A program made the translations under genes and the position numbers. This document shows positions 6,095 through 31,496 of a stretch of DNA of 32,000 nucleotides, piece by piece. The stretch comes from Acidovorax sp. FHTAMBA (GTDB taxonomy: Bacteria; Pseudomonadota; Gammaproteobacteria; Burkholderiales; Burkholderiaceae_C), in assembly GCF_038958875.1 (NCBI RefSeq), contig NZ_CP152407.1, positions 985,640 through 1,017,639 of the forward strand, given 5' to 3'. The notes beneath the pieces are model-generated. The model had not been told where the DNA came from, searched no databases, and was given only the letters and a program-made list of their open reading frames with translations. Position 1 is the first letter of the stretch. Every line of letters starts with the position of its first letter.

Positions 6095-6158
6095 GGATTT
6101 CAAGTCATTTTGCCACGGAGCGCTTATGTATAAAGCGGTAGCAGCTATTGTTTTGGTA
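6095..6158. repeat. AT-rich dyad repeat, copy B (supplies the start codon and signal-peptide N-region of the DUF2147 gene)
   Basis: ggatttcaagtcattttgccacggagcgcttatgtataaagcggtagcagctattgttttggtag aligns nearly position for position with copy C at 13863-13926. Confidence 0.75.
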
Positions 6159-6563
6159 GCGAGTGCCTTGCCGGCCTGGGCGCAGATGTCGCCCGAAGGC
6201 CTGTGGCGCAACATCGACGACAAGACCGGTGAGGCCAAGGCCGAAATCCGCATCCGCGACATCGGCGGCGGCGTGCTGAACGGGGCGCTGGAAAAGCGCC
6301 TGACCAAAGACGCCAAGCCCGAGGATGTGTGCAATGAGTGCACGGACGACCGCAAGGGCAAGCCGCTGCTGGGGCTGGAGATCATCCGCGCCGCCAAGAA
6401 GGCCGAGGGCAAGGATGTGTGGGAAGGCGGCAAGATTCTCGACCCCGAGAACGGTCGCAACTACACCCTGCGCATGACCCCCATCGAGGGCGGCAAGAAG
6501 CTCGAAGTGCGGGGCTCTATCGGCCCCTTCGGTCGCACGCAGACCTGGATCCGCGTCCAGTAA
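6126..6563 (+). CDS. DUF2147-domain secreted protein
   Basis: Signal peptide MYKAVAAIVLVASALPAWAQ followed by SPEGLWRNIDDKTGEAKAEIRI...GGKILDPENGRNYTLRMTP...LEVRG, which is typical of DUF2147. ATG 6126 is chosen over ATG 6087. Confidence 0.8.
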   Translation: MYKAVAAIVLVASALPAWAQMSPEGLWRNIDDKTGEAKAEIRIRDIGGGVLNGALEKRLTKDAKPEDVCNECTDDRKGKPLLGLEIIRAAKKAEGKDVWEGGKILDPENGRNYTLRMTPIEGGKKLEVRGSIGPFGRTQTWIRVQ

Positions 6564-6587
6564 GCGCTGCTCATCTTTCACAAAACC

Positions 6588-12991: not shown

Positions 12992-13768
12992 ATGACAGAA
13001 GCCACCCAAGATATCCTCGTTCACTCCGAAGCAGGCGTGACCACCATCACCTTCAACCGTGTGGACAAGAAGAACTCCATCACGCGCGACATGTATGCCG
13101 CCATGGCGGAAGCACTCGATGCCGCCAAGGCCGATGCCAGCGTGCGTGTGGTCGTATTCCAGGGCGACGTGGCCATCTTCAGCGCAGGCAATGACATTGG
13201 CGACTTTTTGCAGCAGCCGCCCGCCACGCAGGACTCGCCTGTGTTCCGCTTCCTGCGAGGCATCGCCGCCTTCCCCAAGCCCGTGATTGCGTCTGTCTGC
13301 GGCCCGGCCGTGGGTATTGGCACGACGATGCTGTTCCACTGCGACCTCGTTTACGCGGGCGACAACGCGGCGTTCTCCATGCCGTTCGTCAATCTGGGCC
13401 TGTGCCCCGAGGCCGCATCGAGCCTGCTGGTGCCGCAGATGCTGGGGTATCACCGCGCTGCGGAAGCCTTGCTGTTGGGCGAGCCTTTCATGGCCGAGGC
13501 TGCGTTGGAAGTCGGCCTGGTGAACCGCGTGGTGCCACCCACCGAGTGCAATGGCGTCGCACAGGCGCAGGCCAAGAAGCTGGCGGCCAAGCCGTTGTCG
13601 TCGCTCATCGAGACCAAGCGGTTGATGAAGGGTGGACAGATGGCGAAGGTGTTGGAGGTGATGGCACAAGAGGGCGAGAGCTTTGGGCGCATGTTGCGCG
13701 AGCCTGCGGCGCGGGAGGCGTTTTCGGCGTTTATGGAAAAGAGAAAGCCTGATTTCAGCAAGAGCTGA
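12992..13768 (+). CDS. Enoyl-CoA hydratase/isomerase family protein
   Basis: 258 aa from MTEATQDILVHSEAGVTTITFNRVDKKNSIT. Crotonase motif KPVIASVCGPAVGIGTTMLFHCDLVYA. The ORF extension to 12665 overlaps the thioesterase gene. Confidence 0.92.
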   Translation: MTEATQDILVHSEAGVTTITFNRVDKKNSITRDMYAAMAEALDAAKADASVRVVVFQGDVAIFSAGNDIGDFLQQPPATQDSPVFRFLRGIAAFPKPVIASVCGPAVGIGTTMLFHCDLVYAGDNAAFSMPFVNLGLCPEAASSLLVPQMLGYHRAAEALLLGEPFMAEAALEVGLVNRVVPPTECNGVAQAQAKKLAAKPLSSLIETKRLMKGGQMAKVLEVMAQEGESFGRMLREPAAREAFSAFMEKRKPDFSKS

Positions 13769-13862: not shown

Positions 13863-13926
13863 GGATTTTGGTCAATTTGGCTGCTGGCGCTTATCTAGCA
13901 AGCGCTAGCAGCTATTGTTTTTGTAG
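13863..13926. repeat. AT-rich dyad repeat, copy C (intergenic)
   Basis: ggattttggtcaatttggctgctggcgcttatctagcaagcgctagcagctattgtttttgtag. Internal dyad gctgctGgcgctt-atctagc-aagcgcTagcagc. Confidence 0.8.
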
Positions 13927-13970: not shown

Positions 13971-14008
13971 TTGGCGTGTTGATTTGAAAAGCATGCATGT
14001 GTTCAGGG

Positions 14009-14694
14009 CGGAGGCCGGGTTGTCGCCCGGCATGCGAGTAACTTTCTTTTGCGTCGCCAAAAGAAAGTCACCAAAGAAAAGGCGACCCCCAGTCTGCGAC
14101 CCCTTCGCGGTGCGAAGGGGCGACCTGCGCCGGGGCAGTTGCGGGGTGCGCCGTGGAACTCGCTTTGCGCTGGCGCGCGCCGCTCGGACAACCACGGCGA
14201 GTCAGATTACGAGGCATGCGCGCTCCGACGCGCATGCTCACCCCGCAACCGCCCCGCCGCAGGCGCAGCCAGCAGGGGGTTGGACAGCCGAACATCCAGC
14301 AGCCGAACATCCACACGGGCCATCGCTGCGCTCGGCCCCGCCTCGCGGGCGCAAGCGCCTCGCGCTGCGCAGGGCGGGGCCGAGCGCAGCGATGGCCCGA
14401 ATGGATGTCCGATCCCGGTGGGTTCCCTTCTGTATGCGTCTGGGGCGCGCAGGGCGTGGGGTGGCGCGTGTGCCGAAGGACACACGCGCTTCGTGAACTG
14501 ACTCACCGCAGTTGTTCGAGCGGAGCGCCGCAGGCGCGCAGCGAGTTCTGCGGTGCACCCCGTGACCGAGCACCCCAGGTTGCCCCGCAGCGCAGCGAAG
14601 GGGTCGCAGACAGCAGGGTCGCCCTTTCTTTGGTGACTTTCTTTTGGCGACGCGAAAGAAAGTTACTCGCCTGCCGGGCGACTCCCGGCCTCCG
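14009..14694. repeat. 686-bp imperfect palindrome (two head-to-head copies of a roughly 340-bp structured element)
   Basis: The outer ~100 nt of each arm are reverse complements with few mismatches (cggaggccggg...gtaactttcttt.gcgtcgccaaaagaaagtcaccaaagaaa.ggcgaccc). Homology continues inward. The centre is a perfect 26-bp inverted repeat, 14317-14342 / 14373-14398, around a 30-nt spacer. All overlapping ORFs are Arg/Ala/Pro-rich and judged non-coding. Confidence 0.9.
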
Positions 14695-14859
14695 TCCTTC
14701 GCATGGGCACGCGATCTGCTTCCAAATGAAAAGCAAATCAGGCAGTGAATACCGGCGTTTCACCTCAAAAAGCACCCGTAGCAATCGCGATCAGACAAGC
14801 TATCTATTTTTGCAAAGCACTTGCTTGCTAAAAATAAACAGTTTTGCTATCGTGCCTGC

Positions 14860-15609
14860 ATGGATTCACCCGTGCCGCGCACCAGCGCCATCGCCCCCGC
14901 TCCCAAGAAACCCCCGGCCCGCCCTCGCAGCAAGGCCGTAGCGCCCGTCAGCGCCAACTCGGCAACCACAACACAATCCCCCATTGAAGAACCCACCCGA
15001 CGCCCCCGCGGCCGCCCGCGCAAAACCGCCGAAGAACTCGACGACGGCAACCGCCGCCGCAAGCTCATGGACGGCGCGGCCAAGCTCTTCCGCACCCAGG
15101 GCTTTGCCGCCACCAGCACGCGCGACATTGCTGCGGCGGCAGGCATGCACAGTGGCTCGCCCTTCTACCATTTCGAAAGCAAAAGCGCGCTGCTCTACGC
15201 CGTGATGAGCGAGGGCATGACCATGGCCGCGCACAGCCAGCAGCAGGCACTGGATGCGCTGCCCGCCACGGCCACACTGCGCGAGCAGTTGCACACGCTC
15301 ATCCGCCACCACTTCGAAATCCTGCTCGGCCCCCGCAGCAGCTTCATCCCGGTGATGCTGTACGAGTGGCGCTCGCTCACGCCCGCGCAGCGCAAGGGCA
15401 TTGCCCGCATCAAGGACAGCTACGAGGCCACCTGGATGCCCGTGCTGGAAGCGCTGGCACAGCAGGGCGCGCTGCAGGCCGAGCCCGGTGTGGCGCGGCT
15501 GTTCATCTTTGGGGCGCTCAACTGGGCGGTGCAATGGTTCTCGCCCAAAAAGGGCAAGTCGCTCGACGCGCTCACCGACGAGGCACTCGCCTTGTTCATC
15601 CGTTCATAA
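14860..15609 (+). CDS. TetR/AcrR-family transcriptional regulator heading the carboxylase cluster (AtuR/LiuQ-like by position)
   Basis: 249 aa from MDSPVPRT. Low-complexity basic N-terminus, then HTH RRRKLMDGAAKLFRTQGFAATSTRDIAAAAGMHSGSPFYHFESKSALL. Confidence 0.85.
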   Translation: MDSPVPRTSAIAPAPKKPPARPRSKAVAPVSANSATTTQSPIEEPTRRPRGRPRKTAEELDDGNRRRKLMDGAAKLFRTQGFAATSTRDIAAAAGMHSGSPFYHFESKSALLYAVMSEGMTMAAHSQQQALDALPATATLREQLHTLIRHHFEILLGPRSSFIPVMLYEWRSLTPAQRKGIARIKDSYEATWMPVLEALAQQGALQAEPGVARLFIFGALNWAVQWFSPKKGKSLDALTDEALALFIRS

Positions 15610-31389: not shown

Positions 31390-31443
31390 GGAAATTCGGC
31401 GCCCGCGGATACCCATTCGCCTTCTAGCCGAAGAAGCCGATCA

Positions 31444-31496
31444 CGCTGAGCTTGTCGAAGCGCCGCGCGGGGCTTCGACAAGCTCAGCCTGAACGG
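31444..31496. repeat. Tight REP-type inverted pair between convergent genes (bidirectional terminator-like hairpin)
   Basis: gctgagcttgtcgaagc / gcttcgacaagctcagc form a 17-bp perfect stem around the loop gccgcgcgg. It lies between the stop at 31389 (+) and the stop at 31572 (-). Confidence 0.8.

Follow-up and report, generated by a model that had tools for sequence, protein, structure and literature searches.

The 32,000-nucleotide stretch of Acidovorax sp. FHTAMBA analysed here (contig NZ_CP152407.1, positions 985,640 to 1,017,639; hereafter the window) carries a large imperfect palindrome between an enoyl-CoA hydratase gene (12992-13768) and a gene of the TetR family (14860-15609). An initial annotation, made from the letters alone, had delimited it at 14009-14694. 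Inverted symmetry and alignment to other copies reach about 18 nt further out on each side and place the element at approximately 13991-14712, with termini that agree with the conserved Acidovorax-type end GCRTGCCTGTGTTSAGGGCGGAGGCCGGG. The palindrome is the standard doublet of a conserved family of structured repeats in Beta- and Gammaproteobacteria, a family absent from the databases and literature that we searched. The window copy is the empty form, without cargo: a left unit (13991-14283) and a right unit (14421-14712) stand tail to tail, on either side of tails and a centre (14284-14420) in the position where relatives hold cargo. A profile search found the conserved outer module at 14003-14090 (plus strand) and 14611-14694 (minus strand), so that this doublet is its sole copy in the window.

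The first description of the palindrome itself was borne out in all its descriptive points. The outer arms are near-perfect reverse complements (14022-14088/14616-14682, 67 nt, 96% complementarity). Aligned globally, the left half and the reverse-complemented right half have an identity that is high at the tips and the centre and lower between them: 90–97% at 14017-14095, 58–78% over most of the middle with a minimum of 50% at 14269-14308, and 87% at 14309-14348. The centre is a perfect 26-bp inverted repeat (14317-14342/14373-14398) around a 30-nt spacer, and forms the core of a longer central hairpin (14304-14347/14368-14411). The tails also hold a tandem 14-nt repeat of 15-nt period, CAGCCGAACATCCA (14285-14313), and a tail motif, GGGCCATCGCTGCGCTCGGCC, is common to the window copy, its orthologs and a Variovorax copy. 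The local AT-rich hairpin noticed at 14041-14068 was confirmed and has a mirror copy at 14633-14666. No plausible protein is encoded: neither the long open reading frames (ORFs, up to 178 aa) nor six-frame translations across the element matched a Pfam family. Gene callers do place ORFs over the repeat, as had been suspected; in one ortholog (L127) a 232-aa ORF, likewise without a Pfam match, is called across the palindrome.

A pattern for the module matched at least 120 stretches in species-representative genomes and at least 120 in metagenomes, and all family counts below (doublets, solitary units, motif tallies) rest on the matches listed from these two scans. The suggestion that the arms belong to a dispersed Burkholderiales repeat was right, and the family extends to other Beta- and Gammaproteobacteria: the genera among the matches listed include Acidovorax, Variovorax, Polaromonas, Simplicispira, Xylophilus, Gallionella, Thiobacillus, Dechloromonas, Undibacterium, Silvimonas, Vogesella, Methylobacter, Rheinheimera and Alishewanella. 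The module was also found in Ralstonia megaplasmids, a Variovorax chromid and an Aeromonas record. It occurs on two contigs of the IMG/VR viral collection (L003, L004), in one case deep within a contig of 43 kb; nothing in the GenBank phage collection matched. No description of the element was met in the literature searched, the nearest being a study of BoxC triplexes.

Copies were classed with a profile of the ~95-nt outer module. Among the matches listed, 103 are doublets (53 in the genome set, 50 in the metagenome set) and 69 are solitary units whose inward flank is at least 1.5 kb long (41 and 28, respectively); 45 units of the genome set and 49 of the metagenome set lay too near the edge of their locus for assessment. 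Six of the 53 genome-set doublets represent one orthologous Acidovorax locus. Within the family a unit measures ~0.2–0.33 kb, a solitary unit consists of the module and its own long hairpin, and short doublets span 388–807 bp. In the profile classification doublets are always arranged plus-then-minus, with the conserved modules outermost and the variable tails meeting in the middle; the arrangement first called head-to-head is in fact tail to tail. Uncommon arrangements were also seen: in Alishewanella two units form a tandem direct pair separated by 369 bp, and in two cases units stand back to back with adjacent modules (L022 7397-7834; L086 2827-3070; L100 4033-4233).

These data bear directly on one explanation, that the palindrome is an accidental inverted duplication, or a pair of random neighbours from a common repeat, whose sole effect would be a cruciform or hairpin. 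The region can indeed fold as one long hairpin, and in one Acidovorax ortholog (L130) inverted symmetry reaches the flanking arrays that resemble repetitive extragenic palindromic (REP) sequences. The doublet is however the dominant form of the family in many genera and is conserved at its locus across species, and its arms are old, divergent and each independently compensated. Arm-to-arm identity in 47 short doublets ranges from 70 to 87% (median 79%), none being near 100%, in agreement with the initial view that the palindrome is not a recent simple duplication. The arms might have proved to be members of a repeat that is usually solitary and whose pairing is lost in relatives; on the contrary, pairing is the family norm and is retained in relatives. 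An accidental palindrome is thus highly improbable and, in effect, excluded.

The initial annotation had the whole interval folding on itself. The palindrome is real, but covariation shows that the conserved feature is the predicted fold of each unit rather than the pairing of one arm with the other: the arms drift apart, 31 of 41 doublets being heterotypic in the AT-rich tract, and each arm is nonetheless internally consistent. The predicted fold of a unit comprises a long branched hairpin (P3), an H-type pseudoknot, a U/T-rich mirror tract and one or two terminal GC hairpins. In the left unit, whose putative folding strand is the pyrimidine-rich minus strand read from the centre outward, two GC-rich hairpins P0/P1 (14014-14037) pair gccggg with cccggc (14014-14019/14026-14031) and tcgc with gcga (14023-14026/14034-14037). 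They are followed by helix P2 (14038-14071), with its extension gtaac/gtcac, pyrimidine arm tttctttt (14043-14050), loop (14052-14057) and purine arm aaaagaaa (14059-14066). Next comes a segment (14073-14085) formed of a third tract, aaagaaaa (14073-14080), which is a mirror repeat of the purine arm, and of the pseudoknot strand ggcga (14081-14085), predicted to pair with tcgcc of the P2 loop (14054-14058). P3 (cccc...gggg, 14086-14279) includes internal pairing 14124-14151/14236-14263 and an apical domain (14150-14198) where, inside the helix gccgtgg/ccacggc, lie AACTCG (14157-14162), a variable hairpin and CTCGGACAA (14183-14191).

The right unit has the same parts on the pyrimidine-rich plus strand. 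Its apical domain (14504-14555) is built of the helix caccgcag/ctgcggtg around ttgttcgag, a variable hairpin and cgagtt. The pseudoknot/triplex module (14619-14666) runs through the strand S1a, tcgcc (14619-14623), the candidate Hoogsteen tract ctttcttt (14624-14631), the extension gtgac (14633-14637), the Watson–Crick pyrimidine arm tttctttt (14638-14645), ggcga (14646-14650), the purine arm gaaagaaa (14654-14661) and the extension gttac (14662-14666). Beyond it lie the P1/P0 hairpins (14667-14689), tcgc/gcga at 14667-14670/14678-14681 and gccggg/cccggc at 14674-14679/14684-14689.

To characterize covariation, 148 non-redundant modules were aligned and read on the purine-rich strand from the outside in. 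The stem of the GC hairpin P1 co-varies (TTGCC/GGCAA, TAGCC/GGCTA, GTGCGCC/GGCGCAC, TCGCCC/GGGCGA, TCGCC/GGCGA). P2 is a 14-bp AT-rich helix whose extension pairs co-vary in the same way (GTTAC/GTAAC, GATAC/GTATC, CCTAC/GTAGG, CTGAC/GTCAG). The sequence TCGCC in the P2 loop co-varies with a downstream GGCGA, with the compensated variants TGGCC:GGCCA, TCGTC:GACGA and TGCCC:GGGCA. In 40 diverse copies, 98.1% of the cells of P2 and the pseudoknot helix taken together are standard pairs, and 11 of 18 pairs changed on both sides; none of 500 shuffles reached the observed values, and slid controls were 44–70% paired. The pseudoknot helix by itself is 100% paired, with three of its four pairs compensated.

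A second conserved domain lies ~45–65 nt inside the module. It is made of AACTCG, a variable hairpin and CTCARACAR, and is found in 119 of 155 units, in both beta and gamma lineages. The helix that encloses this apical domain co-varies as well (GCCGTGG/CCACGGC, GCCGCAG/CTGCGGC, GCTGCGG/CCGCAGC, TTGCAC/GTGCAA), and in compact Ralstonia units the AACTCG...CTCARACAR domain is the apex of a long hairpin. RNAalifold was uninformative on the raw MAFFT alignment, a consequence of gap placement there; single-sequence folding did not discriminate, its Z-scores being about -2.4 to -2.6 whichever strand was folded. For the right unit, the RNA minimum free energy is -151.8 kcal/mol on the plus strand and -142.9 kcal/mol on the minus strand. 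Rfam 15 gave no match at gathering score in the window or in seven other loci; at permissive E-values the window gave generic hairpin-type miRNA matches only, and the L038 unit gave none.

The AT-rich tract shows a further level of constraint. Pyrimidine arm, purine arm and third tract change together, in nine distinct variants that each have a Watson–Crick partner and a mirrored third tract. Examples, given as pyrimidine arm / purine arm / third tract, are TTTCTTTT / AAAAGAAA / AAAGAAAA, TTTTCTTT / AAAGAAAA / AAAAGAAA, TTTTTCTT / AAGAAAAA / AAAAAGAA, TTTCTCTT / AAGAGAAA / AAAGAGAA and TTTCTTTC / GAAAGAAA / AAAGAAAG; shorter and longer versions also occur. Of 21 haplotypes, 17 have a third tract that mirrors the purine arm; a direct repeat would also fit, but only in the five self-mirror cases. 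The match in the parallel register is 0.991, compared to 0.900 for the best antiparallel alternative. A homopurine mirror repeat is the signature of an intrastrand triplex, and comparable G/C-rich repeats, BoxC/PIT/TMECO, exist in E. coli and other bacteria (PMC4666352).

On the pyrimidine-rich strand, the order of elements is S1a (UCGCC), the U-rich tract, the 5′ strand of P2, S1b (GGCGA, in the P2 loop) and the 3′ purine strand of P2. As judged from covariation, this predicted layout is that of an H-type pseudoknot whose first loop would run parallel to the purine strand of the second helix, and it has the defining features of this structural class. The U/T-rich tract, which mirrors the helix, could then occupy its major groove as U·A-U and C+·G-C triples. 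The same layout yields such major-groove triples in telomerase RNA and in SAM-II and SAM-V (S-adenosylmethionine) riboswitches (compare PMC6061858). The short linker after the tract would fit one or two nucleotides crossing the deep groove.

Several asymmetries point to the strand that would fold. One extension pair, examined in 136 copies, is an A·C or C·A mismatch 76 times and a G·T once on the purine-rich strand; the former are G·U on the other strand. For the pyrimidine-rich strand, the diverse set gave counts of 16 G·U and 5 A·C. The one difference of the right pseudoknot/triplex module of the window from the left arm reads, on the plus strand, as a C·G-U triple with a G·U wobble and, on the minus strand, as two violations. 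From this wobble evidence we infer a folding strand that runs outward from the centre, which makes it the minus strand in the left unit and the plus strand in the right unit. It could be RNA or single-stranded DNA. On the folding strand, the loops of the mini-hairpins are GNA triloops of the kind known from extra-stable DNA hairpins such as the d(GCGAAGC) mini-hairpins, and this leans slightly towards DNA.

The history of the locus in Acidovorax provides a measure of constraint on the element. A doublet lies between the same two genes in five other Acidovorax genomes (L126–L130), whose TetR proteins are 85–94% identical to that of the window, and is lacking in a further one (L131, TetR 79% identical), where the gap is just 262 bp. 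Between orthologs the element is 0.85–0.91 identical, compared to 0.68–0.87 at third codon positions of the flanking genes and 76–85% over the 140 nt upstream of tetR. The element therefore evolves more slowly than nearby weakly constrained sites, which purifying selection or gene conversion could explain. A 9-bp repeat, TGAAAAGCA, flanks the window copy (13985-13993 and 14727-14735). The orthologs differ there and do not keep it, and as a candidate target-site duplication it was set aside. In L130 (Acidovorax OZ260105, 2472-4000) a single palindrome is made up of a terminator-like repeat, a REP-like array, the doublet, a second REP-like array and a second terminator-like repeat, so that symmetry extends to arrays of another repeat on both sides and the entire 1.5-kb gap is palindromic. 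This suggests that inverted symmetry can spread outward from a doublet.

Constrained retention at this locus keeps alive a reading in terms of host function, in which the units are structured RNAs selected by the host: transcripts coming from the centre or from a neighbouring gene would finish in a triple-helix pseudoknot with a stabilising, terminating or insulating effect on them, and the doublet would serve both directions. Such a role would agree with an element more conserved than synonymous sites and kept in six of seven Acidovorax loci, and with the position of the units, which sit downstream of genes, only 2 of 31 solitary units lying between divergent genes. The G·U wobbles favour one strand, and in Gallionellaceae a hairpin and a U-rich tract precede each unit on the folding strand. 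Pyrimidine-motif triplexes are moreover possible in RNA (PMC4666352). However, solitary units face either way relative to the upstream gene without preference, no promoter-like site was found in a scan of the window copy, and the upstream operon probably ends at a terminator-like hairpin before the element. A read-through transcript would form a duplex of ~300 bp between the arms instead of the local folds, and the putative outward-facing terminators would halt cargo transcripts before they reach a unit. Low-GC cargo and the copying of whole doublets are left unexplained, and no Rfam family matches. We consider a host-selected RNA unlikely, though more plausible than an accidental palindrome and slightly more so than the docking site discussed below.

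The DNA found between the tails of some doublets gives another view of the element. Among the matches listed, 14 long doublets (six in the genome set, eight in the metagenome set; 867–3821 bp) carry such cargo, which lies 7–16 GC points below the flanks in all 14. Thirteen hold at least one ORF of at least 80 aa; L241 (867 bp) holds none. Three cargo proteins matched PADLOC models of defence systems: a RelA/SpoT protein the candidate system PDC-S33 (3e-104), a PLD-like protein PDC-S05 (6e-18), and the third a TIR-like effector (7e-6). Pfam gave a DUF6035/CoiA-like nuclease and a DUF900 hydrolase above the cut-offs, and a HEPN protein below the cut-off (E = 0.006). Cargo proteins are diverse and none is transposase-like. 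In Gallionellaceae, the arms of a cargo-bearing doublet (L074) and of two empty ones (L006 and L089) are related: identities are 0.85/0.85 with L006 in one pairing and 0.91/0.84 with L089 in the other, compared to 0.70–0.74 for the alternative pairings. The Gallionellaceae tails each end in an outward-facing hairpin and U-rich tract that looks like a terminator for the cargo gene.

Two further observations concern the DNA inside the elements. Five units classed as solitary (L049, L136, L078, L197 and L040) have inner-side DNA 10–27 GC points lower than the outer side, with a degenerate partner arm 1.3–2.3 kb away in L040 and L078, and are probably the ends of larger cargo islands. The centre of a Variovorax paradoxus CP063167 doublet (L001, ~1775-1895) contains a G/C-rich motif of BoxC/TMECO type, ccctctccctctgggagagggttagggtgaggg, with its mirror copy; two different triplex-type repeats are thus nested in one element.

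Cargo of this kind could also reside in a platform at which site-specific recombination docks gene cassettes, in the manner of integron attC sites or Acinetobacter pdif modules. A recombinase would then act on the AT-rich palindrome (11-bp arms, 6-nt spacer) or on the tails, and cassettes would be taken up and released at the centre. P2 has an 11-6-11 geometry, which is that of the core sites of tyrosine recombinases. The cargo always lies between two tails and is small, foreign and often defence-like, as in integron cassettes, and one lineage has the same arms in filled and in empty doublets (L074 versus L006 and L089). The attC sites are known to act as folded single strands, an activity that the units would share. 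Against docking, the attC core motifs RYYYAAC and GTTRRRY are absent and no integrase or Xer-like gene recurs nearby. Since the sites are inverted and not direct, simple recombination would invert the intervening segment and not excise it. A double-stranded recombinase site would furthermore leave the mirror third tract, the pseudoknot helix and the apical domain unexplained. This explanation appears somewhat less probable still than a host-selected RNA.

The interpretation that we prefer, at a probability of roughly 0.5, is that the doublet is a non-autonomous element resembling a MITE (miniature inverted-repeat transposable element) or a mobile insertion cassette, empty in the window, whose ~0.3-kb ends act as strand-specific folded single strands read by an enzyme encoded elsewhere. 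The ends, as single-stranded DNA or RNA, would fold in a strand-specific manner, and the enzyme would recognise the folded ends and mobilise the element. With units in inverted orientation, each strand of the element has exactly one unit in the functional sense, at its 3′ side. Two Polaromonas doublets of one contig (L016 and L058) are 86% identical over their whole length in the same orientation, compared to 76% when one is flipped; what was copied is the doublet and not a single unit. Doublets are also present or absent at orthologous sites, as in Acidovorax (six loci filled, L131 empty), and the low-GC cargo of the 14 long doublets counts in favour of this reading too.

Several observations weigh against mobility of this kind. 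No consistent target-site duplication was found in the two Polaromonas copies and none at the window locus. Among the genes within 3 kb of the modules in 114 loci (~8-kb windows), no transposase or recombinase turned up repeatedly, and no autonomous parent was found; only the abundant ABC ATPase genes recur near the elements. Copy number is low, with two to nine module matches per ~2-Mb Ralstonia megaplasmid and, on a 2.5-Mb Variovorax chromid, only the two arms of its doublet. Solitary units have no orientation bias relative to neighbouring genes, and the window copy has no promoter-like site. At one locus the element appears to be kept across species by purifying selection, which is as compatible with a host function as with a selfish element. 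Finally, the triplex of the proposed fold is inferred from covariation only. Two refinements were tried and rejected. The arms do not behave as two differentiated ancient end types, arms of the same type being closer in 69 of 136 comparisons, which is chance level, and by a rough estimate the excess of heterotypic doublets is not significant.

In a bolder and more tentative form, which we hold to be possible and rather doubtful, the units would constitute a new class of large (~0.3-kb) structured nucleic acids and, among bacterial repeat families, the first whose triple-helix pseudoknot has the support of covariation. They would serve as strand-specific, single-stranded recognition modules that move or capture anti-phage cassettes through an undescribed enzyme and by an undescribed mechanism, neither classical transposition with target duplications nor integron recombination. 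Whatever the mechanism, the family accounts for recurrent spurious Arg/Pro-rich ‘hypothetical proteins’ in GC-rich proteobacterial genomes. With nine co-varying tract variants, it adds a well-supported natural triple-helix/pseudoknot motif to the few found in bacteria. For small anti-phage defence genes in Beta- and Gammaproteobacteria, it also suggests a vehicle or docking site that had so far escaped notice. A module of only ~60 nt and the existence of empty and filled copies in cultivable Acidovorax, Polaromonas, Variovorax and Ralstonia make structure and mobility directly testable.

Other repeats occur in the window. The second dispersed repeat, CCGTTCGGGCTGAGCTTGTCGAAGCC, looks REP-like and is present in nine copies, in both orientations, at 6585, 6632, 11011, 13942, 29536, 29599, 29664, 31434 and 31466, with two copies back to back at 31437-31496; it is this repeat whose arrays flank the doublet in mirror orientation in L130. 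The third, GGCTGCTGGCGCTTATCTAGCAAGCGCTAGCAGCTATTGTTTTTGT, is a hairpin followed by a T-run (1929-1957, 6104-6159 and 13871-13926). Its copy at 13878-13914, the only one scanned, scores as terminator-like and is probably where the enoyl-CoA hydratase operon stops, immediately ahead of the doublet. A 31-nt direct repeat (21384-21414/21497-21527, 97% identical, 113 nt apart) duplicates a start, ATGAAAAA(A/G)ATCCTCATCGCCAATCGCGGCG, that encodes MKKILIANRG, resembling the beginning of a biotin carboxylase. The first copy diverges past the repeat and may thus be the leftover of a duplicated 5′ end.

Among known systems, MITEs and mobile insertion cassettes (Correia/NEMIS, ERIC, MIC231, integron mobilisation units) share with the doublet a non-coding, intergenic element bounded by inverted repeats, with presence/absence polymorphism, sometimes passenger genes and no transposase of its own. 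Like MITEs, doublets have terminal inverted repeats around a short transposase-less element, several copies at unrelated sites, and filled and empty orthologous sites; no parent insertion sequence or transposase with matching ends was found in the ~8-kb windows of the 114 loci. In contrast to these elements, the ‘terminal repeats’ here make up the whole element, ~0.3 kb each, and are conserved for their internal structure and not at their tips alone, copy number is low, and neither a target-site duplication nor a parent insertion sequence was found. With integron cassettes and attC sites, the doublet shares small, foreign and often defence-related cargo beside structured repeats that possibly act as folded single strands. 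The repeats are however inverted around a single cassette, always in this orientation, and not in direct arrays; there is no integrase nearby, and GTNAC...GTNAC does not fit the cores RYYYAAC and GTTRRRY.

REP doublets forming hairpins (REPINs) and bacterial interspersed mosaic elements (BIMEs) offer another parallel, their replicating unit being an inverted doublet of a structured repeat that is thought to act as a folded single strand. REPs are 20–40 nt long with a GTAG head, reach high copy numbers and are linked to REP-associated tyrosine transposases (RAYTs), whereas the doublet units measure 200–330 nt, have no GTAG head and are in low copy; no RAYT-like neighbour was found near the modules. 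The triple helices of telomerase RNA, SAM-II and SAM-V riboswitches and ENE-type elements show the same succession as the pyrimidine-rich strand of the units (S1a, a U-rich strand parallel to the S2 purine strand, S2a, S1b, S2b), with C opposite a G·C pair. Unlike those pseudoknots, the units are multicopy, paired, located downstream of genes and at repeat ends, without an Rfam match and known here from sequence alone.

The closest relatives in architecture are the PIT/BoxC/TMECO repeats, reportedly described in E. coli and other bacteria by Hoyne et al. in 2000. Both families are dispersed and intergenic, have no known function and share the order pyrimidine tract, loop, purine tract, short loop, mirrored purine tract. 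In PIT/BoxC/TMECO, this architecture corresponds to a class II triplex on one strand and to the pyrimidine-motif class on the other (Holder et al. 2015, PMC4666352); that study mentions neither the present motif nor these taxa. The BoxC pattern, CCCTCNCCC-N3-6-GGGNGAGGG-N3-GGGNGAGGG, does not describe the module (TTTCTTTT / AAAAGAAA / AAAGAAAA), only the general architecture of a pyrimidine tract, a purine tract and its mirror being shared. BoxC (CCCTCNCCC...GGGNGAGGG...GGGNGAGGG) is G/C-rich, roughly 40 bp long by its pattern, and stands alone, whereas the tract of the doublet is A/T-rich with one or two G·C positions, changes by three-way covariation, and lies inside a pseudoknot and a 0.3-kb unit that has a second conserved domain and occurs in doublets.

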